Shown here piece after piece: positions 7,746 to 32,000 of a stretch of 32,000 nt of DNA. Position numbers and translations under genes: made by a program. Below the pieces are notes generated by a model, which did not search any database, had not been told where the DNA came from, and worked only from the letters and a program-made list of their open reading frames with translations. This DNA is from Polynucleobacter necessarius (lineage in GTDB: Bacteria > Pseudomonadota > Gammaproteobacteria > Burkholderiales > Burkholderiaceae). The stretch is from positions 576,164 through 608,163 of the forward strand of contig NZ_LT606950.1 of assembly GCF_900095195.1 (NCBI RefSeq), read 5' to 3'. How positions within the stretch are numbered: position 1 is the first letter of the stretch; every line of letters begins with the position of its first letter.

Positions 7746-8257
7746 TTGCATGACACCGTATTAAATCCTTTGCCTTGGGTGAAGCGTTTTGCGCCCATGA
7801 TTCCGAAACCAGGTTTGGTCTTGGGTCTTGCTTATGGTGCTGGCGACATGCAATTTATCTCGCGGACCAAGGCTTTTCAGTGATGGCGGTTGATCAAGAT
7901 GTCTCTCTGCTTGAGCGCAACCAAAACCCCCTCATCGAAACCACAGCCCTCAATCTGGAATTGAATGATTGGCCACTACAAGGTCACCAATTTAACGGGA
8001 TTGTCGTGACCAATTACCTGTTTAGACCCCATTTAGATCAGTTGCCAGCAATGCTGGTTTCAGGCGGGGCGCTGATCTATGAAACCAATGCCCAGTTTGG
8101 TAAGCCCTCAAACCCCAATTTCCTCTTAAATTCAGGGGAATTGCTGGCTTTAGCGACCCGTCATGGCCTGAAAGTCGTGGCCCACGAGGGATCTGTATAT
8201 CAATGAACCCAAACCACAGCCGTGGTTCAGCGCCTTTGTGCCCTAAAAGAGGGTTAA
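7746..8257 (+). pseudogene. class I SAM-dependent methyltransferase, disrupted by a frameshift in motif I and an in-frame TGA
   Basis: The frame starting at TTG 7746 reads HDTVLNPLPWVKRFAPMIPKPGLVLGLAYGAG and stops at 7881-7883. The continuation RHAIYLADQGFSVMAVDQD... is in the -1 frame (track ORF 7775..8206). Joining them at ~7844 needs a 1-nt correction. TGA at 8204-8206 is followed in the same frame by [16 protein letters not shown] (to 8257). Confidence 0.7.
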
Positions 8258-8315
8258 AAAGGGCGCCTTCCGTTACAATTTCAAGGTTAAGACAGCTAAA
8301 ATCGGTATACATTCG

Positions 8316-9239
8316 GTGACATATACAGCTCAATCCAAAGGTAGTAAAAAAACCATCTCTGGCAGCATGTCAGCAATTGTGACCCCCATGTTTGAAGATG
8401 GCAGCTTGGATTTTTCTAGCCTGAAGTCTTTGCTAGATTGGCATGTTGCTGAAGGTACAGATGGCATTGTGATTGTAGGCACTAGTGGAGAATCTCCTAC
8501 GGTGTCCGTAGAAGAGCACTGTGAACTGATTTGTGTCACGGTTGAGCACATTGCTGGACGTATTCCAGTGATTGCGGGTACGGGTGGTAATTCCACAGCG
8601 GAGGCGATCGAGCTTACTGAGTTCGCTAAAAAAGTGGGTGCGGATGCAAGTCTTCAAGTGGTTCCGTACTACAACAAGCCTACTCAAGAGGGTATGTATG
8701 CTCATCTCAAAAAGATTGCTGAGTCAGTAGATTTGCCGGTAATTCTTTATAACGTGCCAGGTCGTACTGTGGCCGATTTAGCGGGCGATACCGTCGTACG
8801 ATTGGCTTCTGTGCCAGGTGTAATCGGCATCAAGGACGCTACAAGCAGTCTCGAGCGAGGCACTCTACTAATCAATGATTTAAAACGTGCAGGTCATAGC
8901 GATTTTGCCGTGTTTTCGGGTGATGATTTAACGGCAGCCATGCTGATGTTGATGGGTGGCAAAGGCAATATCTCAGTGACGGCAAACGTAGCGCCAAGAC
9001 TCATGCACGAATTATGTGTTGCAGCGATGTCCGATGACGTGAAGCGTACCCGTGAAATTCAGTATCAATTGATTGCGGTCCACAAAGCGATGTTTACTGA
9101 GGCTAACCCAATTCCAGTGAAGTGGGCTTTACATGAAATGGGCAAAATTACCGCTGGTATTCGGTTGCCGCTCACTCCACTGAGCGACCCACTCCGAGAG
9201 CCATTGAAGGCAGCATTAAAACAGGCCAATTTATTATGA
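8316..9239 (+). CDS. dapA: 4-hydroxy-tetrahydrodipicolinate synthase
   Basis: 307 aa with the motifs GTSGESPT and the catalytic-Lys context GIKDATSS. The start is uncertain (GTG 8316 or ATG 8367). The stop overlaps the bamC start (ATGA). Confidence 0.92.
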
Positions 9240-10381
9240 AGAATGTGTTTTTCCTACCTGGTCGTATCCTTACTTGTGCTGTAGCCTTGACGGCGGTTCT
9301 CGGATTGGTCTCCTGTAAGTCTGTGACAACTAATGACACGGTAGATTACAAACAATCGGGTGCGGTGCGTGGTCCGAATTTATCCTACCCCCCTGATTTA
9401 ATAACATCCCAAGCAGATCGTCGTTATATCGTGCAAGACGGCACCGCAACCATGTCTGAGTACAATGCAGCGGTTAAAAAATCTGTACAAATGCGAAGCA
9501 ATGTGATGACGGGTATTCCGGGTATGCGCATTGCTAAAGATGGGGAGCGCAGATGGTTGGTAGTTGAAAAACCCGCACCAGAGCTTTACCCCAAAATTAA
9601 GGATTTTTGGCAGGAAAACGGTTTCTTATTGGTGGTTGATTCGCCATCCACTGGAATTATGGAGACTGATTGGGCAGAAAATCGCGCCAAAATCTCACAA
9701 GACTTTATTCGTAAGGCATTGAGTAGCGTTTTAGATTCCGCTTATGACACTGGTGAGCGAGATAAATATAAAACTCGCTTAGAGGTTACGAAGCCGGGTG
9801 TAACGGAGATTTACATCACTCAACGTGGCGCGCTTGAAAAATGTGTGACCGATACGACTGGCGCATGTCTATACACCATTTGGACTCCTCGTCCTAACGA
9901 TCCGGAACTTGAGGCAGCATTCTTGGTGCGCTTAATGGAGCGTCTTGGAATGACGCAAGAGCAAGCTAAGGCAATGGTTGTAACCCCGCTAGGACCAAAA
10001 ACCCCTAAAGCCAAGTTTGTTCAAGAGGCGAATAACAAGGGTTATATCGAGTTAAGCGCTGGCTTTGATCGCTCATGGCGTGATGTGGGTTTGGCGCTGG
10101 ACCGATCGAATTTTACCGTTGAGGATCGTAATCGTTCTGAAGGCGTCTATTTTGTTCGTTACATCAATGCGAAAGACGTTGGTGATTCAAAAGGCTTTTT
10201 CAGTAATCTTCTTAGTAGCAAAGATGATGCAAAACTGCAGGCAAAGAAATATCGTGTTGTTGTGAAGAGCGCCGGTGATAATTCTGCGAATGTCTATGTG
10301 CAGGACGCAGATGGTAAGCCTGAAAATACGCCCGCCGGTATTCAGTTGCTCACGATCCTTACCGATCAGTTGACGAAGTAG
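9236..10381 (+). CDS. bamC: outer membrane protein assembly factor BamC (NlpB-like lipoprotein)
   Basis: 381 aa with a signal peptide and lipobox GLVSC (Cys27). It is translationally coupled to dapA, matching the classic dapA-nlpB pair. Confidence 0.75.
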
Positions 10382-10410
10382 GTCGTATACTAAATGCCGC
10401 ATTAGGCAAT

Positions 10411-10440
10411 AAAAAAGCCGCTCGAAAGCGGCTTTTTTAT
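10411..10440. terminator. bidirectional rho-independent terminator between convergent bamC and the small lipoprotein gene
   Basis: AAAAAAGCCGCT-CGAA-AGCGGCTTTTTT: a perfect GC-rich stem flanked by an A-tract and a T-tract. Confidence 0.75.
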
Positions 10441-10453
10441 TTGATGAAGAAGA

Positions 10454-10639
10454 TTACTTCTTAGCGTCAGCAGCAGGAGCAGCTGGTGCAGCAGGAGCAG
10501 CATCTTTAGCAGCGTCAGCAGCAGGAGCAGCTGGTGCAGCAGCAGGAGCAGGAGCTTCAGCAGGTTTTGCTTCTTCTTTTTTACCGCAAGCGGCCAAAGC
10601 GATAGCTAACATTGCAGCGAATACGAGTGACTTCTTCAT
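10454..10639 (-). CDS. small Ala/Pro-rich lipoprotein (61 aa)
   Basis: MKKSLVFAAMLAIALAAC has lipobox LAAC (Cys18). A GAGGAA Shine-Dalgarno lies 7 nt upstream of the ATG. The mature part is a low-complexity A/P/K/D repeat. Confidence 0.7.
   Translation of the reverse strand: MKKSLVFAAMLAIALAACGKKEEAKPAEAPAPAAAPAAPAADAAKDAAPAAPAAPAADAKK
10463..10542. repeat. 32-nt direct repeat at 48-nt period inside the small lipoprotein gene
   Basis: AGCGTCAGCAGCAGGAGCAGCTGGTGCAGCAG occurs at 10463-10494 and again at 10511-10542. This encodes a 16-aa internal duplication of the AAPAAPAADA unit. Confidence 0.85.
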
Positions 10640-10667
10640 TTGTAATTTCCTCTAAAAAATAAAACAG

Positions 10668-10683
10668 CAATTATCAATAATTG
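10668..10683. repeat. 16-bp palindrome upstream of the small lipoprotein gene (possible operator)
   Basis: CAATTAT-CA-ATAATTG has perfect 7-bp arms and lies about 30-45 nt upstream of the start codon at 10639. Its function is unknown. Confidence 0.3.
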
Positions 10684-10744
10684 TTGCGGGAACTACCAAG
10701 GGCTAATACCTAAGTAATTACCTGTATTCATTATAGTCATACCG

Positions 10745-11980
10745 TTACCGCTTCTCGAAAATTAGCCAACCAGCAAGATAGGCTTCATAGAGGCTTGATT
10801 TGTCGACGTTTTTTAGGGTCTTAGCGGTTAAGCTCCTATTGGCTGAGAGGGTCTCCCATGCCGCAACCACATTGTTTGGCTGATCTTTTGTGACTTCTTC
10901 TCCGTTGCAAAAAACTTGTTTTCTGAAGCTCAAAATTCGGGTCTGCGGGCTTGGTATCAGTGCCTGCTTAGCCAATTTATTTAGAAAGGATTTCGGAGAA
11001 AGGGATGGGACCGGCCCAGTGAAAAAGGCATTCGGTTTTGGTTCTGAGAGGTAGGCTGTAATACCGGGTAAAAAACGGTTTACTTGATTGAGCTGTAGTT
11101 TGCTAACTTCCTCGTGTAATCGCTTTATCAACTCCTCTGGCAGTTGATCTGGATTGGCGGTGGCATTCTGCTTCGGATCAGCAAATCTTTGATCTAAATT
11201 TGGAATATCTTCTAGCGATTCAGCAAGTCGCCATAAACCCTCTTGCAATAACTCTTTGAAGCTTGGCGAACGAAATCCCACGGACCACGTTTGGCAGCCT
11301 GAATCCAATGCTATGCCATCGTGCGCAATATGTGGTGGAAGGTAGAGCATGTCACCAGGCTCTAAGACCCATTCCTGCTCGCTCTGAAACGATTGCAAAA
11401 TCTTCAAGGGAAGTTTGGGGTTAAGGCTTAAGTCCTTTTGTTCCGAGATGCGCCATTGTCTTCTACCCGACATCTGAATCAAGAACACGTCATAGGAGTC
11501 AAAGTGTGGCCCTGCGCCGCCGCCGATGCCAGCAATGCTAATCATCAAATCATCAAGGCGAGCATCTGGTATGAACCGAAACCACGATAGTATGGTTGCT
11601 GCGGCCGGGTGATGCGCTTCCATGCCCTGAAACAACAGCGTCCAATTTGAATCCCCCAACTTCGGGATCCGTTTTTTAGTAAACGGCCCGTGTGAAAAAC
11701 GCCAAGGCTTGGACTGAATCAAGCGTGATTCCAGTTCCTCTTTTTCGGACAATTGAATCAGCTCAGAGTAAGAGATGGGGCTTTCTAAGTACTCATCATT
11801 TTGTTTGGCTAGGGCAAAGGCAGGAATGGCCCCTCGAACTAATAATGGCTTTTTGTGCCAATATTGCTTCATGAACTGCTGTGGACTGATTCCGCCAAAA
11901 AGTGCCCATGGCAACTCCAATGGCAGCTTTTTAGGTGGCTTGGGTGGTTGATGGGGTGTGCTCAAGTAAAATGAGGTCAT
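10745..11980 (-). CDS. JmjC/cupin-domain oxygenase (YcfD/RoxA-like ribosomal protein hydroxylase family)
   Basis: 411 aa with a 2-His-1-carboxylate facial triad context (GPHFDSYDVFLIQMSGRRQW ... PPHIAHDG). Confidence 0.8.
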   Translation of the reverse strand: MTSFYLSTPHQPPKPPKKLPLELPWALFGGISPQQFMKQYWHKKPLLVRGAIPAFALAKQNDEYLESPISYSELIQLSEKEELESRLIQSKPWRFSHGPFTKKRIPKLGDSNWTLLFQGMEAHHPAAATILSWFRFIPDARLDDLMISIAGIGGGAGPHFDSYDVFLIQMSGRRQWRISEQKDLSLNPKLPLKILQSFQSEQEWVLEPGDMLYLPPHIAHDGIALDSGCQTWSVGFRSPSFKELLQEGLWRLAESLEDIPNLDQRFADPKQNATANPDQLPEELIKRLHEEVSKLQLNQVNRFLPGITAYLSEPKPNAFFTGPVPSLSPKSFLNKLAKQALIPSPQTRILSFRKQVFCNGEEVTKDQPNNVVAAWETLSANRSLTAKTLKNVDKSSLYEAYLAGWLIFEKR

Positions 11981-12015
11981 AGAGTGATTAGAAACGAATG
12001 TACGGTAAATTGCGC

Positions 12016-12624
12016 ATGAAGATTGAAAAAAATACTATCGTATCCCTTCGATATAAATTAACAGACGCACACAATAATGTCATCGAAGAGCCAGATGCTC
12101 CGATGGTATACCTGCACGGTGGTTATGAGGGTACTTTCCCAAAAATCGAATCGCTGCTTGACGGTCAGGATATCGGCTATGAAGCCACTATTCAGCTCGA
12201 ACCCAATGAAGCATTTGGTGAGTACGATCCGGAATTACTCAAGATTGAGTCGCGTGCTCGCTTCCCAGAGCCGTTGGAGGTTGGTATGCAGTTTGAAGGC
12301 GTTCCCGACTCTGAGGAGTCTGAAGACATTTCTGTCGCTGATGTCGAGGAAGATAGTGACGATGAGCCGCTGATTTATACCGTTACCGATGTCGAAGACA
12401 ATCAAGTGGTTCTCGATGGCAATCATCCACTGGCTGGAATGGCGCTGCGCTTTTGGGTGCAAGTTGAGGATGTGCGTGCTGCAACCGAGGATGAAATTGA
12501 AAACCGTCACCCAGATGGTGCCGAGAATTTTACCTTCGGCATGCCAAGCGAAGACGCTGATGAAGAGGATTTCTTAGAAAAAGCGCTTGGCACCCAAGGG
12601 CAGGTATCGCGCACCCTGCATTGA
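12016..12624 (+). CDS. slyD: FKBP-type peptidyl-prolyl cis-trans isomerase (SlyD-like)
   Basis: MKIEKNTIVSLRYKLTD...VYLHGGYEGTFPKIESLLDGQDIG is the SlyD FKBP/IF pattern. I prefer ATG 12016 over track start 11998. The insert and tail are acidic rather than His-rich. Confidence 0.8.
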   Translation: MKIEKNTIVSLRYKLTDAHNNVIEEPDAPMVYLHGGYEGTFPKIESLLDGQDIGYEATIQLEPNEAFGEYDPELLKIESRARFPEPLEVGMQFEGVPDSEESEDISVADVEEDSDDEPLIYTVTDVEDNQVVLDGNHPLAGMALRFWVQVEDVRAATEDEIENRHPDGAENFTFGMPSEDADEEDFLEKALGTQGQVSRTLH

Positions 12625-12639
12625 TTTAGATTACTAGGG

Positions 12640-13398
12640 CTACTCTTTCAGCCATTCTTTAATGGCATCTAAATCGCGCTTGGTATCACTGCTGCCCGCA
12701 GAATCTGTTGGCGTATTGCTAAGTTTTGCCAGAGCCTTTTCAAGCTGGGCAATTTTTGCTTCTTGCTCAATCGTGGCATCGATCAGACCCCTAAGTGCCA
12801 TTGACACGGGATCATCAACATTGGGTGTCACGCCATAGGCAGAGAAGTATTCCTTTGTTTTGCTATCCGCGCTTTGCGGTAAATCGGGATGCAGAATGCG
12901 AGCTGGAATTCCAACAGCAGTTGCTCCGGGCGGAATTTCTTTTAAGACCACTGCATTTGATCCAACGCGCGCACTATCGCCAACGGTAAATCCGCCCAAT
13001 ACTTTCGCACCTGCGCTGACGACGACGCCATTGCCAAGGGTAGGGTGACGCTTAACACCTTTGTAGAGCGAAGTGCCACCTAATGTGACGCCTTGATAGA
13101 TGGTGCAGTCATCACCGATCTCGGTAGTTTCGCCAATCACAATTCCTAGGCCATGATCTAAAAATACGCGACGACCAATCTTTGCACCAGGATGAATTTC
13201 AATACCAGTAATAAAGCGCGACACCATCGATAGCAAACGCGCAATCCACTTTAAGCCTAAATTCCATAAAAAATGGGAGATGCGGTGGAGCCAAACTGCA
13301 TGTAAACCTTGGTAGCAGGTAATGACCTCGAGACGGTTTCTTGCCGCTGGATCACGAACGATGATGGAGTCGACTTGCTCAAAGAGTGAATTAAACAT
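12640..13398 (-). CDS. cysE: serine O-acetyltransferase
   Basis: 252 aa with left-handed beta-helix hexapeptide repeats (GIEIHPGAKIGRRVFLDHGLGIVIGETTEIGDDCTIYQGVTLGG). Confidence 0.93.
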   Translation of the reverse strand: MFNSLFEQVDSIIVRDPAARNRLEVITCYQGLHAVWLHRISHFLWNLGLKWIARLLSMVSRFITGIEIHPGAKIGRRVFLDHGLGIVIGETTEIGDDCTIYQGVTLGGTSLYKGVKRHPTLGNGVVVSAGAKVLGGFTVGDSARVGSNAVVLKEIPPGATAVGIPARILHPDLPQSADSKTKEYFSAYGVTPNVDDPVSMALRGLIDATIEQEAKIAQLEKALAKLSNTPTDSAGSSDTKRDLDAIKEWLKE

Positions 13399-13420: not shown

Positions 13421-14152
13421 CTATTTTTTGTGGAGCATCTCTTTTGCCATGCCTCGCAGTAAATCAATCTCCTCTTTTTGAAGGCGAGCGCGGGCAAATA
13501 ATGCCTCTAATCGAGGCATTAGTTTTTTGGGTTGGTGGGGTCTAAATAGCCAATAACGCCAGTGCTCCAGCATGGCTGAAACAGCAACAGGATCAGCTAG
13601 GTCCTGAGCATCACGGTTTTTACGGATTCATCAGCAGCGCCAGCCTTTAAAGCCTGTCGGAGGATATAGGCACAGACCATAAGTGCTTGAGCTAAATTGA
13701 GCGAGGGGTAATTGGGGTTAGCGTCCAGCCAGACACGATGAGTGCAGAGCGATAGGTGGTGGTTTTCAAGACCGGTTCGCTCTGGACCAAATACCATGGG
13801 CGACGTACCCTTGATTTTGGACCGTTTGCGCGATCAGCTGGCAGGCACTCTCCCAGTCGATAGCAGGAGGACCAAATTCCCGTTCGCGACTGGTTAATCC
13901 AACTACCATTGAGCACCCTTGGACCGTGGTGTCGAGAGAGTCGGATACAGAGCAAGATTCCAAAATATCCACTGCGCCACTCGCCATTGCTATGGCATCA
14001 GCTTGCTTTGCGATATCAGGAGTATTGGGGTTCACAAGCCGTAATTGCTCGAAGCCCATGGTCTTGAGGGCTCTCGCGGCAGAGCCGACATTGCCTGGAT
14101 GGCTAGTCTCTACCAGAACCCAACGCAGAAAACGGGCTTGATTAATGTTCAT
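13421..14152 (-). pseudogene. trmJ: tRNA (cytidine/uridine-2'-O-)-methyltransferase TrmJ, split into three frames
   Basis: Segment 1 is the SpoU N-terminus (VLVETSHPGNVGSAARALKTMGF, track 13766..14170). Segment 2 is MVFGPERTGLENHHLSLC...NLAQALMVCAYILRQAL (13597..13797). Segment 3 is unlisted: NRDAQDLADPVAVSAMLEHW...KKLMPRLEALFARARLQKEEIDLLRGMAKEMLHKK*, ending at 13421. The joins fall in the run GGG 13798-13800 and in the T5 run 13617-13621. Confidence 0.8.
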
Positions 14153-14292
14153 TAGGTGGTGGCTTCTCAAGGGATTTGGGGTAAATAAGGCAATTCTTTT
14201 AGAATCATAGGATTAGCTTGGTATTGTCATGCAGAAAATCACATTTTCACAGTACTTCTGGCCCGTTCTTATTTAATTTGTCCACCCATACT

Positions 14293-15081
14293 ATGCATCC
14301 CATGTTAAATGTGGCCGTAAAGGCCGCCCGTCGTGCTGGAACCATTATAAATCGTGCTTCATTGAATTTGGAGCGCCTCCAGATTGATCGCAAACAGCAC
14401 AATGATTTTGTGACTGAGGTGGACAAAGCCGCAGAAGCGGCCATCATTGAAACCCTGAGCGAAGCCTATCCAACGCATGGATTCATGGCTGAAGAAACGG
14501 GTGAGCATAACTCTGATGCTGAAAATGTCTGGATCATTGATCCATTGGATGGCACAACCAATTTCATTCATGGCTTTCCGCAATATGCAGTCTCAATCGC
14601 CCTAGCAGTCAATGGCGTGACACAACAAGCGGTTGTGTACGACCCTACGCGGGATGAGCTCTTCGCTGCTACACGTGGTGCGGGCGCATACCTCGATCGC
14701 CGTCGTTTACGAGTGGGTACGCAAGATCGCTTAGCGAATGCATTGATCGGCACAGGCTTTCCATATCGTGAAGATCAAGACCTCGAAAAGTACCTCAAGA
14801 TATTTGCAAAGATGTCTCGCCAATGCGCAGGGTTGCGCCGTCCAGGTGCAGCCTCTTTGGATTTGGCATATGTAGCCGCAGGTCGTTACGATGGATTTTT
14901 TGAGAGTGATCTCAAGCCATGGGATATGGCCGCTGGTGCTTTGTTGATTGCCGAAGCAGGGGGCCTTGTCGGCAATTATCGAGGTGAGGAAGGGTTCTTA
15001 AAGAGCGGTGAGGTGATGGCTGCTAACCCACGCATCTATGCGCAGATGGTGCAATGTTTATCAAAATATTCCGTCAGCTAA
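14293..15081 (+). CDS. suhB: inositol monophosphatase family protein (SuhB)
   Basis: [16 protein letters not shown]...EE...[12 protein letters not shown]...WDMAAG motifs. The ATG at 14293 is preferred over track start 14218. The gene is divergent from trmJ, as in many proteobacteria. Confidence 0.9.
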
Positions 15082-15082
15082 T

Positions 15083-15871
15083 TTAAGATTTAACTAAATC
15101 GACTGACCGAACTCCTTCCGCATTCACCAACAGCGCATTGGCTCTAGGACGTGCACTTTCATGGCGGTCTAAATCCCAATCCGATAACACCCAGCGTTGC
15201 CATTTTTGCGCACCAAAGGATTCTTGATGGTGTGCAGGCAGATGAGTGTGTCCGTGAATGAGTTGATCGCAGTCAAACGTTTTTAGAGCTGCAGCACAGG
15301 CATCCTGAGTAACATTCGTTTTGATGACGTTTCGATGGTGGGACGTGCTAGCGCGGTGCTGGTATTGAGCCTGACTATTGCTGCGCAGGTGATTAGCGAT
15401 ACCACGACGCCATGACAGTGGTAATCGTAAAAACGATTTTTGTATCCAACGCTTTCTGGTCCATCTACGAAATACTTGATAGCCCGCGTCTGCCGTACAG
15501 AGCGCGTCACCATGTGAGAGTAAGTATTGCTGACCACCTAGGTTTACCAATGATGGATCGGCTAATGGCATTATTCCGGTTTTTTTTAGAAATGCTGGGC
15601 CAATCAAAAAATCGCGATTGCCATGCATGTAGTACGTTTTGGTTTTGCTGGAGAGACTAGCAAGGGCGCGCCTTACTTCCCGAGTAAATGGGGAATGAGC
15701 GGCGGCGGCATCTCCAATCCAATACTCAAATAAATCACCCAAAATAAATACAGCTTCAACCTGGGAAACATCTTTTTCGCAGAAGTCAAAAAAGCGTTGC
15801 GCCGTCAATGGCATTGACGGCGTCAGGTGTATGTCTGAGATGAGCAGGGCGCTCGTGTGATGCGGAATCAT
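15083..15871 (-). CDS. lpxH: UDP-2,3-diacylglucosamine diphosphatase
   Basis: 262 aa with calcineurin-like metallophosphatase motifs ([25 protein letters not shown]). The start ATG overlaps the ppiB stop (ATGA). Confidence 0.9.
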
Positions 15872-16362: not shown

Positions 16363-16403
16363 GGTTTGATTTACCTATCTGATGATTTAGTGGATGAATT
16401 GCT

Positions 16404-17216: not shown

Positions 17217-17276
17217 TCGATATACTCAGCGCTCAGTCTAACAAATTGGCGCTACTTGCCGCACCTTTATAGCTCT

Positions 17277-19354: not shown

Positions 19355-19363
19355 AATCTGACT

Positions 19364-21593: not shown

Positions 21594-21684
21594 CGGGTTC
21601 AAACCCTGTAAAATAAACCATTTTTAGGCCTGTGGCTGAGTGGTAAGGCTTAAATCAACAAACCAATAGATTACAGACAGTTTT

Positions 21685-23260: not shown

Positions 23261-23892
23261 TTGAAACAATGGTGCATCGCAACAAAAAATGTAACCCAAT
23301 TTCATAAAGGATTAATCATATTTCAAGCTCAATTAAACGATCAAATCGCTCAAGCTAAAGCTAAAGCTGTTGAGAACGCTAAACATTTGGCGCAAGTAGC
23401 TGTTGAAAGTGCTCAAGAATTAGCAGAACTCAACCAAGCTGCTGCTAAAGATGCATTGGCTGCTGCACAAGATGCAAGCTCACAATTGTTGGCAATCAAG
23501 GATCCACAACAATTGGCTAAATTGGCTCAGCCAGAAGCTGCTCAAGAAGCTGCTAAGTATGCTGCTGCTACCAAGCTAAAGTAAACAAAGTTGTTCGTAA
23601 CGGTAACAAAGAAGTTACTCAAGTTGTAGACGCTTCTATTGATGACGCTCGTGATGACTTAGTTAAGTTTGTTAAGGAAGCTACTAAGTCTGCTCCTGCT
23701 GGTTCTGAGGCATTTGTACCTGCATTCAAAACTGCATTCGAAGCTTCTCTCCAACAGTTTGACCAAGTTCGTGCAACTGCAACTGATGCATTTGCAACTT
23801 TTGAAAAGAATGTTGATTCTGCTTTGGCAAACCTTCAAGGTCAATACGCTGTTGCTAGGCCAGCTGCTAAGAGCCGTAAAGCTGCCGATTAA
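23261..23892 (+). pseudogene. phaP: phasin (PHA granule-associated protein), frameshifted
   Basis: The N-terminal half is in the track ORF 23261..23584 (FQAQLNDQIAQAKAKAVENAKHLAQVAVESAQELAELNQAAAKDAL...). The C-terminal half YQAKVNKVVRNGNKEVTQVVDASIDDARDDLVKFVKEATKSAPAGSEAF...AKSRKAAD* reads from 23569 in the +2 frame to 23892. The join lies inside the (GCT)3 run at 23561-23569. Confidence 0.8.
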
Positions 23893-23986: not shown

Positions 23987-24521
23987 TTAATAGTTCTTGC
24001 CATCCACTGCTTTGAGATAGCCCTTAATGTACTGGGGCGGCACATAAACTACAGTGCTAATTCCAGCTTTTGATGAGATTTTTAACTGAAATCCATCATT
24101 CAAATTCTGTTTCAAAAACGCATCCGTTAAATTCACTGATACCAATTCCTTAAACATACAGCCTTTGGCTTCGCATAGGCCGGCTTCTTTGGGGATGACT
24201 TTTAATGTAGTTGCGGGGCCATTGAGAAGAGAGGCCGAATCGTAGTTGCGCATTTGATTGAAATAGGTCAAATGAATCTGCAATTCGTTAGTGCCTTGGG
24301 CAGATAGATCGCTTCGTAGATTAAACATCTCATAGGTATTGGCTTCACCATCGTGTTGATCGAAGGCCCGACATAGGTCTTTCCGCCAGCGCTATTCGGG
24401 GTCGCGGTAGTGGATTGATAGACGTCGTTTACTTCCCATGAACTAATTTTCTATCGTTATTAGCACAGCCGGTGATGACTATGGCAAAAGCGGCGGCAAG
24501 TAATAGTGCAATACGGAGCAT
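23987..24521 (-). pseudogene. lipoprotein of unknown function, two frameshifts
   Basis: A GGAG Shine-Dalgarno precedes ATG 24521, which encodes MLRIALLLAAAFAIVITGC (lipobox) ANNDRK.. and stops at 24429-24431. The second frame reads SSWEVNDVYQSTTATPNSAGGKTYVGPS. The third frame reads FDQHDGEANTYEMFNLRSDLS... and equals track ORF 23987..24328. Confidence 0.6.
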
Positions 24522-24560
24522 AGTTGGCTCCTTAGTTAGCAAAATAATACTATCGTCCCG

Positions 24561-24686: not shown

Positions 24687-24866
24687 ATGAAGCGACAAAT
24701 ACCGAAAACACATCAGGCCTTGGAGTGGATAGGGAAGGGCCTGAGCGCAGCTCAAGCCGCTAGAAAGATGCAAATTTCAGAATCCAGCGTATACGCCGCT
24801 CTCCGCAAAACGAGAGCAAAGGATTTGGAGTGTTGTCCAACTTGTGGTTACAAAATAAGGAACTAA
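24687..24866 (+). CDS. small helix-turn-helix protein (59 aa), not in the ORF track
   Basis: ATG 24687 is preceded by GGGAGA. The translation is MKRQIPKTHQALEWIGKGLSAAQAARKMQISESSVYAALRKTRAKDLECCPTCGYKIRN, with an HTH-like GLSAAQAARKMQISESSVYAAL and a single C-terminal CxxC. The stop lies 2 nt before the next ORF. Confidence 0.45.
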   Translation: MKRQIPKTHQALEWIGKGLSAAQAARKMQISESSVYAALRKTRAKDLECCPTCGYKIRN

Positions 24867-24868
24867 AA

Positions 24869-25165
24869 ATGAAAAAGACTCTATTAGCAACCGTCACAAT
24901 TTCTGTAGCCGCATTCGCTTATGCAAGCACATCCTCTGATTCATCTGCACTTGTTAGCCAGCAATGTAAACTTTCCGCTGAAGCAGCATCTACCTTAAAG
25001 AGTTTGCAGTATGGCAATACGTCGATACGCAAGGACGTCTCCAGTTTGATTGATCGCCACTTAAAAACTCAAGAAAATCGAGATATTGCGCATAAGAAGC
25101 TGAATCTGATGGTTGATGACAAATCTTCTGATGCTCGCACCCTAGAGATGAAGTACTGCTCCTAA
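24869..25165 (+). CDS. small secreted protein of unknown function (98 aa)
   Basis: An AAGGA Shine-Dalgarno precedes ATG 24869. The signal peptide is MKKTLLATVTISVAAFAYA/STSS. The mature protein has two Cys residues and I recognise no family. Confidence 0.5.
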   Translation: MKKTLLATVTISVAAFAYASTSSDSSALVSQQCKLSAEAASTLKSLQYGNTSIRKDVSSLIDRHLKTQENRDIAHKKLNLMVDDKSSDARTLEMKYCS

Positions 25166-25193
25166 TTGAGCAGCATTCTGCATAGTCAGCTCT

Positions 25194-25654
25194 TTGATTC
25201 AAATAGCAGAATGTCCAGAATGCGGTAATCCACGTGGATTATTTGACGATTGTCCGCACTGTGGATCATTATCCCTCCGCATGTGATATCGGATACTGTT
25301 GAGCTCAATATCAAGCGCGGTAATCTTTCAGTCGAGGAGGCTCTTGACAACCTGGCGGCCAAGATTCGTGAGCTGCAAGAGTTGGGTATCAAGACTATCG
25401 TGTTGATTCATGGGTATGGGTCATCCGGAAAGGGTGGTCATATTAAGAGGGCGGTCCATGATGCACTGGAAAATAATTGCTATGCAGATCGCGTTGAAGA
25501 GTATTGCTTCGGAGAGATGGTTCCCTATGCTAGCCCCGTATACCAATCGCTTATTAAGCAACGCCCGGGCTTGAAACAGTTTTTAAGGCACTTTAAGGCT
25601 GCTAATGCAGGAATGACGGTTCTACTCCTTGGTTCGGCACCTAGGAGTGCTTAG
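25194..25654 (+). pseudogene. Zn-ribbon + Smr-like domain protein, apparently split by one frameshift (alternatively two separate ORFs)
   Basis: The frame from TTG 25194 reads IQIAECPECGNPRGLFDDCPHCGSLSLRM* and stops at 25284-25286. Track ORF 25250..25654, in another frame, carries an Smr-like core (VELNIKRGNLSVEEALDNLAAKIRELQELGIKTIVLIHGYGSSGKGGHIKRAVHDAL...NAGMTVLLL). The join would fall between 25263 and 25286. Confidence 0.5.
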
Positions 25655-25686
25655 AATAGAGTGAATAAAGGATTCGTGGAGCATTT

Positions 25687-26028
25687 ATGAGTGCAAAAAA
25701 ATCAGATCACCAAGTCGACCGGGAAGCGGTATCCGCTAGCGCCGATCAACTCATTGGTGAATTCAAAAACCTGATGGTGGATGCTGAGGCTTTAATTAAA
25801 GTCACCGAGGATCATCCGAGTGAAACAATTAGCTCCATTCGCAATAAGGCACTTGACACTATTGCTGGTGCAAAAGCCAGTCTCTCAAGATTAGAAGGAT
25901 CGCTGACAGATAAGGCGAAGGCAGTAGCTTTGGGGGCAGATGATTTTGTTCACCGAAATCCCTGGGAGGCTGTCGGAGTGGCTGCTGGATTGGGCTTGCT
26001 GATTGGCTTATTTATACGTCGTCGCTAG
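25687..26028 (+). CDS. yqjD: ElaB/YqjD/DUF883 family membrane-anchored ribosome-binding protein
   Basis: 113 aa with a helical N-terminus, the motif FVHRNPWEAVGVAAGLGLLIGLFIRRR, and a C-terminal transmembrane anchor. Confidence 0.85.
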   Translation: MSAKKSDHQVDREAVSASADQLIGEFKNLMVDAEALIKVTEDHPSETISSIRNKALDTIAGAKASLSRLEGSLTDKAKAVALGADDFVHRNPWEAVGVAAGLGLLIGLFIRRR

Positions 26029-26034
26029 GCCCAT

Positions 26035-26400
26035 ATGTCTCAAGAAAACTTCCTTGCTTCCATTAAAAGCCTGGCCTCTACTGGAGCATCTATAGCGCAG
26101 ACGCGGTTAGAGCTTTTATCGGTAGATGTTCAGATTGCCAGAAATAAATTCATTAGCCTGTTGGTCTTAATTGTTTGCGCCTTGTTCTTTTTATTCTTTG
26201 GCTTAGTGATGCTGGCCTTGCTGATTGTGATCTATAGCTGGGAATCCGACAAAATGTTGGCATTAAGCTTGCTGACAGGGGCTTTCATTGGGGTTGGGCT
26301 CATCCTTGCGCTCCTGATTAGACAATCTCTCAACAATATGCCGAAGTTATTTGAAGCATCGATTGCTGAATTAGCCAAGGACCAACAAGATATCACTTAA
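26035..26400 (+). CDS. yqjE: YqjE-like inner membrane protein (DUF1469 / putative holin-like family)
   Basis: 121 aa with two transmembrane helices, located directly after the yqjD homologue as in the E. coli yqjD-yqjE-yqjK operon. Confidence 0.7.
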   Translation: MSQENFLASIKSLASTGASIAQTRLELLSVDVQIARNKFISLLVLIVCALFFLFFGLVMLALLIVIYSWESDKMLALSLLTGAFIGVGLILALLIRQSLNNMPKLFEASIAELAKDQQDIT

Positions 26401-26681
26401 TGGGTAGCACTTTAAATACTCTAGAGACGCGTCGGCAAGCGTTGCAAGAGCGTTCTGTTTTGGAGCGACGTGAGTTTGCTAAACACTTTAAGCCCTGGGA
26501 AAAGCGGCTCTCATGGGCGGCCAAGGGCGTTGATGCCTTCCCCTTTCTAAAAAATAATCCATTGCTCTGGACTAGTGCGTTTGCCACCTTGGCGCACTAT
26601 AAGCCAAAGCTAGCTAGAAAGTTGTTGGCAGTAGGTTGGGGTGGATTGAAGATCTTTAGAAGTATTAAAAAGATCGTTTAG
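26400..26681 (+). CDS. yqjK: YqjK-like protein
   Basis: 93 aa. The start overlaps the yqjE stop (TAATG). It has a charged coiled N-terminus followed by a hydrophobic segment, and it is the third gene of the conserved operon. Confidence 0.55.
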   Translation: MGSTLNTLETRRQALQERSVLERREFAKHFKPWEKRLSWAAKGVDAFPFLKNNPLLWTSAFATLAHYKPKLARKLLAVGWGGLKIFRSIKKIV

Positions 26682-26687: not shown

Positions 26688-27145
26688 TTACTGCTCAGCC
26701 TCGTACCAAACTTGGGTTCTACCAAGAAAGTGGTACGCCGATATACCCACGAACATCCATCTTCTTGTCATCTTCGGTACTGATTTTGACTTTGTAGTAT
26801 TCACCCTCTTTGGGATCTAGAATTTTTCCGCCTGACCATCCCCCAGGTTTATCTTGTTTTAAGCCACTCATGATTTTTAGGCCAATAATCGGCTTATCTT
26901 TGAGCTCGTCTTTGCAGAGATTGCAATTGACTAAAAGCGTTTCATTGGGACGCGGGAATGTCTTAATGATGGTACCTTCTAGGCTACCATTAACCTCATC
27001 AATCTTGATGAGTGATGCTGGTTGATTGGTTTTGTCATCAATCGTTTTCCATACGCCAATTGCGGGGTCAGTGGTCTGCGCTAATGCTATTTAGCAGACA
27101 GGATGGCGATAACTTTAGAACGATTAAAAACCATTTATTTGACAT
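26688..27145 (-). pseudogene. DUF2147 family periplasmic protein, three single-nt frameshifts
   Basis: A GGAG Shine-Dalgarno precedes ATG 27145. The frames read MSNKWFLIVLK | VIAILSAK | IALAQTTDPAIGVWKTIDDKTNQPASLIKIDEVNGSLEGTII...CNLCKDELKDKPIIGLKIM...WSGGKILDPKEGEYYKVKIS...MDVRGYIGVP | FLGRTQVWYEAEQ*. The joins are at ~27114-27116, ~27090-27092 and ~26728-26737. Confidence 0.75.
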
Positions 27146-27176
27146 CTCAGCTCCTTATTAATAAAGATGGATTTCC

Positions 27177-27285
27177 TTAACAGGCAGCAAAAATACCGGT
27201 AGCACCCATTCCCGTACCAACGCACATCGTCACCATGGCATGCTTTAAATTTTTCCGCTTCATCGCATGAATCGCGGTTGCTGCA
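27177..27285 (-). pseudogene. thiolase (acetyl-CoA acyltransferase) C-terminal remnant, ~35 codons, fused in frame to the fadB-like remnant
   Basis: The tail of track ORF 27177..27443 reads ...TAIHAMKRKNLKHAMVTMCVGTGMGATGIFAAC*, which is the thiolase C-terminal CxGxGxG signature. The rest of the thiolase gene is absent. Confidence 0.6.
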
Positions 27286-28684
27286 CGAATGGCCGCTTCT
27301 TTCAGACCACCACCCGCTGGCAGAAGGCCGACACCCACCTCGACTAAGCCGATGTAACTTTCGATTGCCGCGACGCGCCGAGCCGACTGCATGACCAACT
27401 CACAACCACCACCAAGAGCGATGCCGGATACCGCGCACACCACCGGGGACTTTGGAGTATTTCACACGCATCATGGTGTCTTGAAACAACTTTACAAATG
27501 GTTCGACACCAGCAGGTCCGCCTTTCATCACCATGGGCAGGCCAGTTTCGAGATTTGCTCCGAAGAGAAGGGGCCGCCGGGAGTGCCAAGTTTTAGGGAG
27601 GTAGGTTGCCAAATGACTAAGCCAGAATAGTCTGCTTCAGCCAATTCAATCGCTTTTTGAATACCGTTAAAACGTCTGGGCTGATCGTATTCATTTTGGA
27701 TTTAAACGAAGCGATTAATACCCCTGGCTCATTGGGGTCAACCCATGCGCGTAGATCAGCATTTTCGTAAATCGTTGTGCCAGCCGTTCTTGGGTCTGGT
27801 GAGCCATCTCCAAGAAGAGGGGCTCGAAAAACCTGTTTTTGGTAGACGGGAAGGGTGGATCGCTGGATGAATCGATTTTGTGCAGCTGACCAAGAACCTT
27901 CTGGTGTGTGGAAGGCTTGCTTCTCCGCCACAGGCCCATTAAAGATCCAATGCGGTAGCGGTTCTTTGCTGAGGGTTTTGCCGGAATCAATGTCCTCTTT
28001 AATCCAATTGGCTACTTGAGTAACGCCAGCTGCTTGCCAATCTTCGAACGGACCCTTATCCCAGCCGTATCCCCAGCGCATAGCAAAGTCGATTTCGCGT
28101 GCGGAGTCAGCGATGCTTGCTAAATGAATGGCGCAGTAGTGGAAGATGTCGCGGTAGATAGACCACAAAAATTGCGCTTGAGGATGATCAGTTTCTCTGA
28201 GTAATCCCAATCTCTCTGCTACCGGCTTTTTTAAGATTCATTCTACAATCGGATCAACTGTGGCGGTGGAGGGCTTATATTCACCGTTCGCAGGATCAAG
28301 AACCATGACCGCTTTGCCGTCTTTACGATAAAAACCGGCTTTTGTCTTTTGACCTAACGCACCTTTTTCAATCAGCTTTGCAACGACATCAGGAACCTTA
28401 AATAGACTCGAAAATGAATCGCTCTGTAGGGAGTTCTCCATGGTTTTAATGACGTGCGCCATGGTGTCTAGTCCAACGACATCGCTGGTTCGAAACGTTG
28501 CCGATTTAGGGCGACCCAGTTTGCTACCGGTAATAGCATCTGCCCAAACCAAATTTTTGCGCTTGCGCAAATACTGCCAAGATAGAGAAAACGCCAACAC
28601 GGTTGCTGACAAAGTTGGGCGTATCTTCTGCGCGAACAACACCCTTATAAAGGTTTCGAGTGCATCCAGCACCTCTGGATCAGA
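27286..28684 (-). pseudogene. 3-hydroxyacyl-CoA dehydrogenase / enoyl-CoA hydratase (FadB-like, dehydrogenase-first architecture) remnant
   Basis: The pieces, in order on the minus strand, are listed here. DPEVLDALETFI | KGVVRAEDTPNFVSNRVGVFSILAVFAQAQKFGLG | ADAITGSKLGRPKSATFRTSDVVGLDTM...DPIVE. An in-frame TGA sits at 28238-28240. Then ILKKPVAERLGLLRETDHPQAQFLW...AMRWGYGWDKGPFEDWQ...ISPDVL | GIQKAIELAEADYSGLVIWQPT...GGPF | GANLETGLPMVMKGGPAGVEPFVKLFQDTMMRVKYSKVP | VVCAVSGIALGGGCELVMQ...GLLPAGGGLKEAAIRAA. The N-terminal NAD-binding domain and the C-terminal ~100 aa are missing. Confidence 0.8.
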
Positions 28685-29185
28685 GTCTGCGTGATGCGGG
28701 CATCCCGAACATACTGCTCCATTCCCAATTCCGCAATGTAACCGTGACCACCAAACACTTGCAGGCCTTCATTAGTTGCAATAAACGCGTTATCCGTGAG
28801 GAACGCTTTGACGATGGGGGTTAAGTTAATAAGGACACCATTTCATTGGTCTCTTTGCGTACAGATTCATCTGGATGTGATAGTTCTGTGTCAATCATCA
28901 AGGCCACCCAATATGCAAATGCTCTAGCACCCTCTGCATAGGCGCGTTGGGTTAACAACATGCGTCGTACATCTGGGTGAAAAATTCAGGTTCTGTGGCA
29001 CCTTTAAGGCTGCGCATTTGTAGTCGTTCCTTGGCGTAAGCCGCAGAGTTTTGATATGCCACTTCAGTCAAACCAAGGCTCTGCATACCAACTCCAAGGC
29101 GTGCGGCGTTCATCATCACGAACATGGTATTCAAGCCTTTATTCGGTTCGCCGACAAGCGTGCCAATCGCACCATCTATGAGCAA
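28685..29185 (-). pseudogene. acyl-CoA dehydrogenase internal fragment (N-terminal half and C-terminal end deleted), two frameshifts
   Basis: DGAIGTLVGEPNKGLNTMFVMMNAARLGVGMQSLGLTEVAYQNSAAYAKERLQMRSL | HPDVRRMLLTQRAYAEGARAFAYWVALMIDTELSHPDESVRKETNEMVSLLT | PIVKAFLTDNAFIATNEGLQVFGGHGYIAELGMEQYVRDARITQ. The joins are at ~28978-28990 and at the GTTAA x2 duplication 28820-28829. Confidence 0.8.
28820..28829. repeat. GTTAA x2 tandem duplication inside the acyl-CoA dehydrogenase remnant
   Basis: Deleting one 5-bp unit restores ...VSLLTPIVKAFLTD... in frame. Confidence 0.85.
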
Positions 29186-30151
29186 TTCTCATCTTCCAAA
29201 GGCATTGCGAGGACTCCGACTGCCAGTCATTGCAGCGCCGATGTTTACCGTGAGTTATCCAGAATTGGTGAAAGCCCAATGTCTAGCTGGTATTGTGGGG
29301 TCCTTTCCGGCGCTCAATGCTCGTCCCCCTGAACTCTTGGATGAATGGGCTCACGCAAATTCAGGAGGAGGTGAATTCGCATCAGCAGCGAAATCCACAA
29401 TCGAAGGTTGGTCCGCTCGCAGTAAATCAAATTGTGCATGTCTCCAATGTACGCCTTGAGCAAGACATGCGGGTTTGTGTAAAGCACCGCATTCCGTTTA
29501 CATCACTAGCTTACGTGCCCCCATTAAAGACATGATCGATGCTGTTCATAGTTACGGAGGGATTGTTCTGCATGACGTCATTAGTTTGCGTCACGCTGAA
29601 AAAGCACTTGAGGCAGGTGTAGATGGTTTGATTCTCATTGCTGCTGGGGCATGCGGGTGGGTTGTCGCCGTTTGCCTTAGTCGGTGAAGTGCGAAAATAT
29701 TTCAGGGGCCAATCGTACTCTCTGGCGCCATTAGCACTGGATTGGCAGTTTTGGCAGCTCAGGCCATGGGTGCGGATTTTGCCTATATATGGGTACCCGG
29801 TTTATCGCTAGCCAAGAGGCACATGCGAGCGACGCCTACAAAGAGGCGATTGTGAATGCGAGCGCTTCCGATGTTGTTTACACGGACTACTTCACGGGAA
29901 TATCCGGTAATTACATCAAGAAAAGTATTGAAAACGCAGGGCTTGATCCCAATCATTTGCCAGCCGGTGATCCTGGCGCCTTTGCCAAGCTCTCGCAGGA
30001 AAATAAAGAGGCTGGTAGTAGCAAAGCGTGGAAGGATATATGGGGTGCCGGTCAAGGAGTTGGCCTTGTTGATGATGTTCCCTCTGTAGCACAGATTATC
30101 GACACCTTAGAAACGGAGTATGTCGCAGCTAAGAAAGCGCTTATCAATTAA
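29178..30151 (+). pseudogene. nitronate monooxygenase (2-nitropropane dioxygenase / NPD-like) family, about five frameshifts
   Basis: MSNSHLPKALRGLRLPVIAAPMFTVSYPELVKAQCLAGIVGSFPALNARPPELLDEW | LTQIQEEVNSHQQRNPQSKVGPLAVNQIVHVSNVRLEQDMRVCVKHRIPF | ITSLRAPIKDMIDAVHSYGGIVLHDVISLRHAEKALEAGVDGLILIAAGA | HAGGLSPFALVGEVRKYFRG | PIVLSGAISTGLAVLAAQAMGADFAY | MGTRFIASQEAHASDAYKEAIV...KAWKDIWGAGQGVGLV...*. The joins are at ~29346, ~29499, ~29650, ~29707 and ~29786. Confidence 0.8.
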
Positions 30152-30201
30152 TCCATTGTAGATTCATTCTTTTTACCAATCGATTTTTGGAACTTATTAA
30201 C

Positions 30202-30933
30202 ATGTTGTGGCTCGGAGCAGTTTTATTTTATTTGTACGGAATTTTTACGGTGGTTATTTTTGCCTCCGTGATTTTGTTGTTGATACCGTTTTCGAAGTCT
30301 TCCACGCGTTATCAAGTCGGCGTGGTGTGGTGCAAATTAGCCCTCTGGGTGCTTTCAAAATTATGCGGAGTGCGATACAAAGTTGAAGGCTTACACAATA
30401 TCCCTTCAGATCATCAAACGCCATTGATTGTTTTGGGAAAACACCAGTCTGCTTGGGAGGCGATTGCTTACCCAGCACTTTTTCCTAATGAACTCTGTTT
30501 TGTATTCAAGCGCGAATTACTGCTTTTGCCTTTCTTTGGTTGGGCTTTAGGGTCTTTGGGAATGATTCACATCAACCGAGGTGATCGTGAAAAAGCCCGC
30601 GAGGCAGTGGCCAAGTTAGGCAAGCAGTGTTTGCGGGAAGGAAAATGGATATCGATATTTCCGGAGGGTACCCGCACGCCCAGAGGCTCTTTAAAGCCTT
30701 GCCGGCGTGGCGGTGTGCGCTTGGCTATCAGTACCGATACCAATATCCTGCCAATCGCTCAGAACTCAGGTCTCTTATGGCCACGAAATACATTCGTTAA
30801 GAAGCCTGGCTTAATCACCGTATCGATCGGCCCCGTTATTACAGTGGCAGGCAAAACCGAGGATCAACTTCAAGAGGAAGTGGAAAACTGGATTGAGGGT
30901 GAAATGCGTCGCTTAGACCCCAGAGCGTATTAA
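30202..30933 (+). CDS. plsC: 1-acyl-sn-glycerol-3-phosphate acyltransferase
   Basis: It has the acyltransferase motifs HQSAWE (HX4-acidic block) and FPEGTRTPRG plus an N-terminal transmembrane helix. The start is either ATG 30202 or TTG 30187. Confidence 0.85.
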   Translation: MLWLGAVLFYLYGIFTVVIFASVILLLIPFSKSSTRYQVGVVWCKLALWVLSKLCGVRYKVEGLHNIPSDHQTPLIVLGKHQSAWEAIAYPALFPNELCFVFKRELLLLPFFGWALGSLGMIHINRGDREKAREAVAKLGKQCLREGKWISIFPEGTRTPRGSLKPCRRGGVRLAISTDTNILPIAQNSGLLWPRNTFVKKPGLITVSIGPVITVAGKTEDQLQEEVENWIEGEMRRLDPRAY

Positions 30934-30954
30934 TGAACAATTCTTAATAAAGTC

Positions 30955-32000
30955 ATGTATCCAATCACCGAATTTGATTACTTTTTCATTGGCGGTGGAT
31001 CGGCTGGTTCAGTTGTTGCGTCTCGACTTAATGAATCAGGCGCTAATACGGTGGCACTTTTTGAAGCTGGCGGTAGGGGCCGACTGTTTTGTTGTCAATA
31101 CTCCCTTGGCTGCAGCGGCCATGTTGCTCACCTATACCCGTGGGCATCCGTTCCCGTGGGCATCCGTTAGACTATGATCACTGGGCATCTTTGGGAAATT
31201 CAGGCTGGTCATACCAAGATTTACTGCCGTACTTCATTAAAAGTGAATGTAATGCCAATTTAACTGGGTCATTTCATGACAATAACGGCCCTCTACACGT
31301 TTCCCACCTTCAATCTGACAACCCCTATCAAGAGATTTTTATAGCTGCAGCAAAGCAAGCGGGGTTTCCGATTAGTGAAGATTTCAATGGCGAGACGCAA
31401 GAAGGTCTAGGGATCTATCAAGTTACTCACCAAAATGGTGAGCGTTGCAGTGCTGCTAGGGCTTACTTGTTTCCGCATTTGGAAAATCGTCAAAACTTGG
31501 TAGTGCAAACCTTGAGCGTATCGTGATTCAAGAAGGACGCGCGATGGGGATTTTGTACCGCCAAAATGGCGTACAAAAAGAAGCGCGCGCACGAAAAGAA
31601 GTAATTCTGTGCGCTAGAGCAATTGTTTCTCCTCAATTGCTGATGCTATCTGGCATTGGCCCTGCCGAGCATCTTCAGCAACTTCATATTCCAGTGGTTC
31701 ATAACCTTCCGAGAGTCGGTCAAAATCTACAAGATCATCCAGATTTTATATTTGGCTATGAGGCAGATGATACGAATTTAATTGGCATCTCGGTTGCTGG
31801 CACCCTAAAACTCCTTAGAGAATATCAACGCTACTCAAAATCCCGCAGAGGCATGTTTGCGAGCAATTTTGCAGAGGCGGGCGGGTTTCTTAAACGGATC
31901 CCACTGTATCGGCGCCAGATATTCAATTGCACTTCGTGGTTGCATTGGTAGATGATCACGCACGTAAATTGCACATGAGTCATGGCTACTCTTGTCATGT
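30955..32000 (+). pseudogene. GMC-family oxidoreductase (choline dehydrogenase-like), multiply disrupted; 3' end beyond the window
   Basis: EFDYFFIGGGSAGSVVASRLNESGANTVALFEAGGR | ADCFVVNTPLAAAAML, then ~40 aa missing, then LTYTRGHP, then the 16-bp duplication. It continues LDYDHWASLGNSGWSYQDLLPYFIKSE...GERCSAARAYLFPHLENRQNLVVQT | LERIVIQEGRAMGILY...SPQLLMLSGIGPAEHL...LPRVGQNLQDHPD...AGGFLK | TDPTVSAPDIQLHFVVALVDDHARKLH... The joins are at ~31076-31082, 31137-31168, ~31507-31513 and ~31892-31895. Confidence 0.8.
31137..31168. repeat. perfect 16-bp tandem duplication (CCCGTGGGCATCCGTT x2) inside the GMC oxidoreductase gene
   Basis: Copy 1 spans 31137-31152 and copy 2 spans 31153-31168. Deleting one copy restores YTRGHPLDYDHWASLGN in frame. 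Confidence 0.95.

Follow-up and report, generated by a model that had tools for sequence, protein, structure and literature searches.

Selective, strain-specific gene erosion in a 32-kb chromosomal segment of Polynucleobacter necessarius

A stretch of 32,000 nucleotides from Polynucleobacter necessarius (RefSeq assembly GCF_900095195.1, contig NZ_LT606950.1, positions 576,164 to 608,163; hereafter the window) contains a mixture of open housekeeping genes and genes whose reading frames are interrupted. This raises the question of whether the interruptions are genuine and, if so, what process has produced them. The window comprises 36 protein-coding loci and one tRNA-Ser(GCT) in the synteny conserved in Burkholderiales and Polynucleobacter. 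Twelve of the 36 loci (33%) are disrupted, covering 7.8 kb or 24% of the bases, both figures applying to the window. A preliminary description, made from the sequence alone, had put the number of loci at about 38, slightly above the count obtained here; the twelve that it named as broken were all found to be so. The window is interpreted as a chromosomal segment of an obligate endosymbiont of Euplotes ciliates which is undergoing reductive evolution after recent host restriction, an interpretation to which a probability of roughly 93% is attached.

The source of the DNA is shown by its proteins. Ten of those tested (TrpS, LpdA, CysE, JmjC-cupin, AccA, LysC, DUF883, holin-like, PlsC and a lipoprotein fragment) match, at 100% identity, RefSeq entries of the series WP_1146622xx that bear the name Polynucleobacter necessarius (taxid 576610) and lie together on a single contig. 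When LysC was searched against representative genomes, matches fell solely in Polynucleobacter, at 88-97% protein identity and about 75% identity of DNA; the genome of origin is thus not one of these representatives. The name P. necessarius is reserved for obligate Euplotes endosymbionts with genomes of approximately 1.6 Mb, a G+C content of 44-46% and 'a large number of pseudogenes' (PMC5018217).

Disrupted loci among intact core genes

Disruption was assessed by tblastn and by a purpose-written frameshift-aware alignment of protein to DNA, using intact orthologues of free-living Polynucleobacter (L002, L009, L010, L089, L082, L169, L081 and P0121). References L002, L009 and L010 correspond to 11.7-26.7 kb of the window, L088-L090 to 7.2-13 kb, and L081, L082 and L169, the last in perfect synteny, to 27-32 kb, while P0121 served for the GMC oxidoreductase gene. 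Gene identities were assigned from Pfam searches of the intact orthologues and from precomputed domains. Alignment controls (PlsC, tilS and the intact fadB of contig L168, a relative described below) exhibited no frame-breaking lesions. Tandem repeats were counted solely where the protein alignment placed a frameshift at the same site, since perfect repeats of 5-8 bp are frequent by chance even in intact genes; an 8-bp tandem at 11540, for example, lies inside the intact JmjC-cupin gene.

Each of the 12 loci aligns to one full-length open reading frame (ORF) in free-living Polynucleobacter, with 1-6 frame-breaking lesions per locus and remnants cut to 10-60% of their length (Table 1). The comparison with free-living relatives that the preliminary description had proposed thus returned intact orthologues and allowed the deleted lengths to be measured. 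The mixture of lesions that it had reported was also recovered, with both in-frame TGA codons (8204 and 28238) and tandem duplications of 2, 5 and 16 bp. On direct inspection, a TAA codon at 8255 proved to be the natural stop of the S-adenosylmethionine (SAM)-dependent methyltransferase gene and is not a lesion; this gene has about 60% identity to its orthologue, compared with 90-93% for the adjoining trpS and dapA. A single-frame translation of trmJ contains four stops.

The kilobase-scale deletions, described earlier as fusing unrelated genes, number three. Relative to L082 and L169, losses of approximately 1.56, 1.0 and 4.4 kb join thiolase to fadB, fadB to the acyl-CoA dehydrogenase (ACAD) gene, and ACAD to the nitronate monooxygenase (NMO) gene, respectively. 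Together they have entirely removed a TetR regulator, a gene for a hypothetical or outer-membrane protein and an acyl-CoA synthetase, so that about 7 kb of a beta-oxidation cluster of approximately 10 kb is gone. Between the end of the 4.4-kb deletion and the NMO start codon downstream of it there are 16 bp (window 29174-29193); the ACAD remnant on the minus strand therefore abuts the start of NMO on the plus strand and the promoter region has been lost. NMO may have ceased to be transcribed before its five frameshifts arose. The P. necessarius contig as a whole is 1,550,368 bp (1.55 Mb) in length, compared with 2.0-2.4 Mb in free-living strains.

The lipoprotein-like gene, for which the stop-to-stop ORF in free-living L009 is 199 amino acids (aa), survives in part as a 113-aa ORF at 23987-24328 on the minus strand. 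This ORF, the C-terminal fragment of the gene, stands in RefSeq as hypothetical protein WP_114662271.1, and public annotation therefore counts too few pseudogenes. No RefSeq protein accession was found for either of the two other fragments checked, the N-terminal part of ppiB and the C-terminal part of NMO.

All of the genes expected to be essential are open, as had been claimed, each of the named housekeeping genes forming one full-length ORF by comparison with NCBIfam models or orthologues. Approximately 31-33 small frame-breaking lesions fall within 11 genes, in addition to the three deletions of 1.0-4.4 kb, and spare a further 22 kb of coding sequence. Uniform placement of some 33 lesions, weighted by the length of each gene, would be expected to hit about 20.4 genes, and in none of 200,000 simulations were 11 or fewer hit (P < 5 x 10−6). 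The chance that the lesions would miss all 12 named essential genes is 7 x 10−10. By a stringent criterion based on the longest uninterrupted piece, which overlooks the break in the Zn-ribbon/Smr gene, 1 of 157 orthologous gene comparisons among 11 free-living Polynucleobacter genomes was interrupted, compared with 3 of 18 in the window. The sole interrupted free-living orthologue was suhB in L019, the long-read metagenome-assembled genome (MAG) MsE-30jul19-LR-32, where the break is probably a long-read consensus error and not a real pseudogene.

After correction for frameshifts, the broken genes retain 63-96% protein identity to functional orthologues, values not below those of intact neighbours or of pairs of free-living strains. 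Against L169, the closest free-living partner in synteny, corrected identities were 90% for fadB, 96% for ACAD and 90% for NMO, while the intact PlsC stands at 83%. For trmJ, ppiB and Smr, the corrected values are the same as between free-living strains. It follows that inactivation is recent.

Table 1. Disrupted and intact features of the window, with coordinates in window positions
Feature	Coordinates	Strand	Lesions	Basis of assignment
SAM-dependent methyltransferase pseudogene (Methyltransf_25/TehB-like)	7749..8287	+	-1 frameshift near 7845; 4-aa in-frame deletion near 8086; in-frame TGA 8204-8206	L089:547-1116 aligns in two frames; Pfam
trmJ (SpoU-family tRNA/rRNA methyltransferase) pseudogene	13424..14152	-	4 frameshifts near 13798, 13619, 13555, 13535	Pfam SpoU_methylase on orthologue; L002 trmJ alignment, 72% identity
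ppiB (cyclophilin) pseudogene	15871..16362	-	3 frameshifts near 16148, 16074, 15988, the last a CCATG x3 tandem repeat at 15975-15989	Pfam Pro_isomerase on orthologue; corrected identity 88%
Phasin pseudogene	23309..23886	+	-1 frameshift near 23568; 12-nt in-frame insertion near 23853	Two tblastn frames; Pfam Phasin_2 on orthologue
Lipoprotein-like pseudogene, family unassigned	23990..24533	-	2 frameshifts near 24448 and 24347	tblastn and frameshift-aware alignment
Zn-ribbon/Smr-domain pseudogene	25155..25651	+	-1 frameshift near 25271-25276	Pfam Smr, Zn_ribbon_3 on orthologue
DUF2147 pseudogene	26691..27084	-	+1 frameshift at 26727 (extra A)	Frameshift-aware alignment; N-terminal ~21 aa not alignable
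Thiolase remnant, aa 361-398 of 398 (C-terminal 38 aa)	27180..27293	-		95% identity to L082 thiolase
fadB-like (enoyl-CoA hydratase / 3-hydroxyacyl-CoA dehydrogenase) remnant, aa 171-658 of 813	27249..28687	-	5 frameshifts; in-frame TGA 28238-28240	
ACAD remnant, aa 272-437 of 595	28693..29176	-	2 frameshifts, one a GTTAA x2 duplication at 28820; ~1.0-kb and ~4.4-kb deletions on either side	
NMO pseudogene, full length	29178..30148	+	5 frameshifts near 29349, 29498, 29646, 29699, 29785; TA duplication at ~29785	Corrected identity 90% to L169
GMC oxidoreductase pseudogene, continues past window end	30955..32000	+	At least 4 frameshifts, near 31081, 31136, 31510, 31893; 16-bp tandem duplication 31137-31168; net loss of ~100 bp (aa ~60-90)	P0121 alignment
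Intact block: sucA (3' part), sucB, lpdA, zapE, PHP-family 3',5'-bisphosphate phosphatase, trpS	6..7729	+		Full-length NCBIfam equivalog matches
Intact block: dapA, bamC, JmjC-cupin, slyD-like FKBP, cysE	8316..13398	.		Full-length single-frame orthologue alignments
Intact: suhB, lpxH, TPR lipoprotein, cysS, HhH-GPD glycosylase, accA, tilS, lysC	14218..22935	.		Orthologue comparison
tRNA-Ser(GCT), intact, same sequence in sister strain	23012..23106	+		Rfam scan
Intact small genes: unnamed 100-aa protein, DUF883, holin-family membrane protein, YqjK-like	24866..26681	+		
plsC (lysophospholipid acyltransferase), intact, dead gene on either side	30202..30933	+		100% identical to WP_114662280.1

Divergence from a sister strain

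The holin-like protein of the window is matched exactly in three contigs, L173 from ENA (L173:1-19885) and L174 and L175 from Logan, belonging to datasets ENA ERZ27248707, SRR32119647 and SRR8208349. The contigs are 99.7-100% identical to one another and 98-99% identical to window positions 18391-27268, and are therefore taken to represent one sister strain of the window strain. Comparison was made base by base and covers five of the 12 broken loci as well as the thiolase/fadB junction. Between the two strains, intact genes (5.7 kb) have accumulated 9.6 substitutions and 0.2 insertions or deletions (indels) per kb, the latter being one in-frame indel of 3 bp. Pseudogenes have accumulated 19.4 substitutions and 10 indels per kb, and intergenic DNA 16.8 and 12.6, respectively. 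The gain of indels in broken genes is thus about 50 times, and that of substitutions about twice, the gain in intact genes, for which the synonymous divergence was pS = 0.020. At these rates, the covered broken genes evolve as neutral DNA. The relaxation of selection proposed in the preliminary description is accordingly sustained by substitution at the synonymous rate and indels at the level of intergenic DNA, and its recency by the corrected identities given above and by lesions private to one or other of two near-identical strains.

The distribution of individual lesions is informative. The lipoprotein frameshift near 24448, at aa 43, is present in both strains. The frameshift in the Zn-ribbon/Smr gene of the window is private to that strain, the sister carrying four other indels, so that the frameshifts differ between them. 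The sister DUF2147 gene does not have the extra A, which is likewise private to the window strain, and has instead a 1-nt deletion of its own at 26791. The phasin gene in the sister bears two additional deletions; no microhomology (0-1 nt) was found at these two sites, and the mechanism of deletion can therefore not be read from them. In the case of fadB the remnants are complementary, the sister having kept aa 1-44 and 667-802 and the window aa 171-658, from which it follows that the fadB deletions are independent and occurred after the strains had split. The common lesion, those private to one strain and the complementary remnants of fadB together indicate that decay is ongoing.

The window and the sister strain might, as a tentative suggestion, constitute a within-lineage time series of genome erosion of a kind not yet described. 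Were this correct, the rates of indels and deletions could be measured directly, as could the order in which genes died following host restriction, and many genes would still have been open when the strains split, at about 2% synonymous divergence.

Gene order in the sister strain also differs from that of the window: its lipoprotein remnant is separated by a Peptidase_U32 gene from a thiolase remnant that has been relocated and inverted, and the small gene corresponding to window 24797-25087 has undergone inversion and shortening. Outside the shared part, the gene-call table for L173:11245-19885 lists fragments of GGDEF (69 aa), Phos_pyr_kin (thiD, 85 aa) and ThiC (88 aa), which suggests that the thiamine-synthesis cluster of the sister strain is decaying as well.

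Alternative explanations for the interrupted genes

Frameshifts, stops and duplications could also be written into an intact genome by errors of sequencing, assembly or consensus calling, and some observations lend themselves to this explanation. The lesions are known from the assembled sequence; a homopolymer of at least 4 bases is found no more than 6 nt from 11 of the 31 frameshift sites, compared with 16% of random sites; and the long-read MAG of one free-living relative does contain the apparently erroneous suhB frameshift mentioned above. Artefacts would, however, be expected to concentrate at homopolymers and to be spread at random over genes, and neither was observed: only 3 of 31 frameshifts are near homopolymers of 5 bases or more, and the lesions are restricted to 11 accessory genes (P < 5 x 10−6). 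Errors cannot make three deletions of 1.0-4.4 kb, tandem duplications of 5 and 16 bp and two nonsense codons. Broken genes also have double the density of substitutions found in intact ones. In the sister strain, represented by three independent datasets, the same genes are broken and the lipoprotein frameshift is held in common. Error is on these grounds a very improbable explanation. A still smaller probability attaches to the idea that some of the interrupted genes are functional, whether by programmed frameshifting, read-through of stop codons or expression as split proteins. The genes with single lesions (phasin, Zn-ribbon/Smr and DUF2147) could in principle give a large fragment, and RefSeq retains the lipoprotein fragment as a coding sequence, but most of the broken genes have 2-6 lesions or have lost most of their length, and their indel and substitution rates equal the intergenic and synonymous rates. 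Programmed recoding was rejected because a conserved site would be expected to stay in place, and the positions of the lesions differ between near-identical strains.

Another proposal is that the DNA comes from an ordinary Polynucleobacter, streamlined and free-living, and that the window covers an accessory region in local decay, for instance a genomic island that is dying out. In its favour, the genomes of free-living Polynucleobacter are themselves reduced, the region adjoining tRNA-Ser varies among free-living strains, and the G+C content of the window is not lowered. This proposal is slightly more probable than error, yet it too is very unlikely. The broken genes are spread over 24 kb amid core housekeeping genes, with trmJ, ppiB and the methyltransferase in conserved core synteny, and 11 free-living genomes have intact copies of these loci. 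Moreover, the window proteins belong to a P. necessarius assembly with a chromosome-sized contig of 1.55 Mb, and the sister contig carries more fragments beyond the limits of the window (GGDEF, thiD and thiC).

Several points weigh against interpreting the window as a segment of an endosymbiont chromosome in reductive decay. The association with Euplotes is taken from the database name and not from the sequence, and the lesions of the window are those of its assembled sequence. The comparison with the sister strain reaches only five of the 12 broken loci, and one small lesion alone is clearly common to both strains; lesions private to the window are therefore authenticated by their distribution and type, not by independent sequence. 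The pN/pS of 0.33 for intact genes derives from just 55 differences between window and sister (26 synonymous and 29 non-synonymous), without a matched free-living control. Finally, at 47.4% the G+C content of the window is slightly above the range of 43.5-46.3% found for syntenic loci in every free-living relative examined, and the drift towards AT that is usual in symbionts cannot be seen. The preliminary description had thought of the ciliate symbionts within Polynucleobacter partly on account of low G+C content; that signal is not borne out, and the attribution stands on the protein identities to P. necessarius. In the published account of the symbiont STIR1, a G+C content of 45.6% compared with 44.8-46.1% likewise amounts to no shift (PMC5018217), and a drop in G+C content is thus not a defining feature of reduction in this genus.

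Under the endosymbiont interpretation, host restriction would have come first and purifying selection would then have been lost on accessory functions, among them beta-oxidation, the phasin of polyhydroxyalkanoate granules, tRNA and other methyltransferases, cyclophilin, and certain oxidoreductases and proteins of the envelope. Small indels, duplications by slippage, nonsense mutations and kilobase-scale deletions would subsequently have built up at the neutral rate, with gradual loss of DNA, while selection would have kept the genes still needed for the tricarboxylic acid cycle, aminoacyl-tRNA synthesis, lysine and diaminopimelate, lipid A, fatty-acid and phospholipid synthesis, and outer-membrane assembly. 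Drift in a small population following host restriction is the presumed cause, and the fragments are presumably without function.

Relation to known reduced genomes

Erosion of the STIR1 genome was reportedly described by Boscaro et al. in 2013 (PNAS 110:18590), and the same first author is said to have shown in 2017 (Nat Ecol Evol 1:1160) that several Euplotes symbionts have undergone parallel, independent genome reduction; both studies are known to us through the papers citing them. The window assembly, which differs from STIR1 and bears 2018-era RefSeq accessions under the name P. necessarius, fits the set of symbionts of the later study, and the lineage-specific choice of decayed genes accords with what that study argues. 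For STIR1, two sources give 231-460 pseudogenes compared with 1,279 genes (PMC4285135) and 269 pseudogenes (PMC5632650), and a review attributes to symbiotic Polynucleobacter reduced genomes, more pseudogenes, independent origins and reduction driven by drift (PMC11253213). The broken fraction of the window, 33% of loci and 24% of bases, is at the upper end of the published STIR1 figures and does not differ from them in kind. Correct as the finding is, it is thus already known and introduces no new principle; the sister-strain comparison is the sole element that is possibly unpublished.

STIR1 and the window strain are alike in genus, lifestyle, genome size (approximately 1.55-1.56 Mb) and the retention of core metabolism beside hundreds of pseudogenes, as well as in the lack of a marked G+C drop and the scarcity of mobile elements. 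They nevertheless represent separate lineages, STIR1 PlsC being only 68% identical to that of the window. A STIR1-like contig, L168, which carries the exact PlsC of STIR1, has lesions of the same types as the window: a TetR regulator beside the beta-oxidation genes (L168:5528-6147) has two stops and four frameshifts, and an ILVD/EDD-family dehydratase (L168:11227-12499) has three frameshifts plus deletions. The choice of genes differs, however, in that thiolase, fadB and ACAD are intact in L168 and destroyed in the window, whereas TetR and ILVD are dead in L168. The difference agrees with decay that is independent and lineage-specific.

Massive pseudogenisation is found in other recently host-restricted bacteria, including Sodalis glossinidius, Serratia symbiotica and Mycobacterium leprae. 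The window shares with these many recognisable pseudogenes with multiple lesions, loss by deletion and the retention of essential genes. It differs in having no visible expansion of insertion sequence elements and no lowering of G+C content, and in that its free-living relatives are themselves planktonic bacteria with small genomes. Serratia and Sodalis have been named as comparable models (PMC9837558). Polynucleobacter is among the few systems in which symbionts and free-living relatives are close enough for the first stage of genome reduction to be watched. The window provides a clear example of that stage, in which gene death is selective, recent and continuing, proceeds at a neutral rate and affects different genes in each symbiont lineage, and the public sister-strain contigs could serve for dating individual lesions.

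Intact runs and the tRNA-Ser region

The run of intact genes at 14218..22935 is broken up by the ppiB pseudogene and that at 24866..26681 by the Zn-ribbon/Smr pseudogene. The former shows no frame-breaking indels relative to the sister strain, the single in-frame 3-bp indel being at the end of tilS. No frame-breaking lesions were detected in plsC on frameshift-aware alignment to L082 and L169. An Rfam scan of the window yielded nothing besides the tRNA.

The spot immediately 3' of tRNA-Ser(GCT), at window 23107-23309, is variable. L002 and L009 each have approximately 5 kb of DNA near tRNA-Ser at slightly different positions (L002:12163-17434 and L009:11426-16264), and such DNA is lacking in L010 and the window. 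The spacer itself differs by four indels between the window and the sister strain.

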